43,253 bases of DNA from an uncultured Planctomycetia bacterium (GTDB taxonomy: Bacteria > Omnitrophota > Gorgyraeia > Gorgyraeales > Gorgyraeaceae): NCBI GenBank assembly GCA_964479825.1, contig CAYZNX010000001.1, positions 1-43,253 of the forward strand, written 5' to 3'. The stretch itself is not shown here. The text below is the continuation of a report on this DNA, generated by a model with database tools.

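Follow-up and report, generated by a model that had tools for sequence, protein, structure and literature searches.

Genes at the left edge of the locus

The first ~110 nt of the window (1–110) appear, by eye and without quantification, to be richer in GC than the sequence downstream, and searches of this segment returned no Rfam or tRNA matches. Possible explanations are that an unrelated element terminates here or that this is an assembly edge. The gene that follows, g1 (window 211–796), encodes a DUF6036/DUF2204 nucleotidyltransferase and is preceded by a small open reading frame of ~60 aa. Together, at this border of the glycan locus, the two resemble a toxin–antitoxin-like pair.

The locus itself is opened by g2 (window 944–1558), which encodes a winged-helix DNA-binding domain fused to a small Rossmann-like domain. 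Two radical SAM proteins, g35 and g40, carry this same Rossmann-like domain at their N-termini, and g2 is a possible nucleotide-sugar-sensing regulator. The neighbouring g3 (window 1565–2554) belongs to the GSU2086 family (score 376 bits, cutoff 250); the family has no assigned function, and g3 is weakly similar to the Rossmann domains of deoxyhypusine synthase and ArgZ. A homologue with 61% identity to g3 adjoins cassette A, the gene group spanning g2–g18 here, in the Brocadiaceae locus L013.

Gene structure within cassette A

The nucleotidyltransferase domain of g5 is duplicated as g4 (47% identity; window 2478–4553), and the domain order of g5, transferase followed by kinase, is the reverse of that in HldE. 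The g4 open reading frame as called overlaps g3 by 77 nt, and its true start therefore probably lies further downstream.

The B12-binding radical SAM gene g15 is frameshifted at a run of six A's (window about 15229–15240). Its last ~90 residues lie in another frame beyond the run (window 15216–15485); intact homologues are 570–593 aa in length. The break reflects a sequencing error in the homopolymer or else a real frameshift, inactivating or phase-variable.

Observations in related loci

In the Saganbacteria locus L002 (JAFGHC010000030.1, 1584–4355), an intein containing a LAGLIDADG endonuclease domain splits the RfbH/DegT-family gene that lies upstream of cassette B; the intein-bearing product is 923 aa, and both RfbH halves align separately. 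The Magnetococcales locus L095 (JADGBW010000001.1) is cassette-A-like, with a split transketolase plus a pair resembling E1α and E1β of a 2-oxo acid dehydrogenase (17692–21279). E1-type enzymes are the other ThDP class reported for sugar branching in secondary metabolites.

In some metagenome loci, among them L093 (SDBV01000148.1) and L062, B12 radical SAM genes of the g37-like type occur as five to seven tandem paralogues within 21 kb. The probes used detected no sugar genes in L093 and only a single SDR match in L062, and these tandem loci may have a different function.

Composition of the cassette B core

Genes g29–g36 (window 30058–38040) form a compositional island with sharp borders, in which GC3 is 0.51–0.54, compared with 0.31–0.45 elsewhere in the window. 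The island matches the core of cassette B that is conserved across phyla, an overlap that recent horizontal acquisition would be expected to produce.
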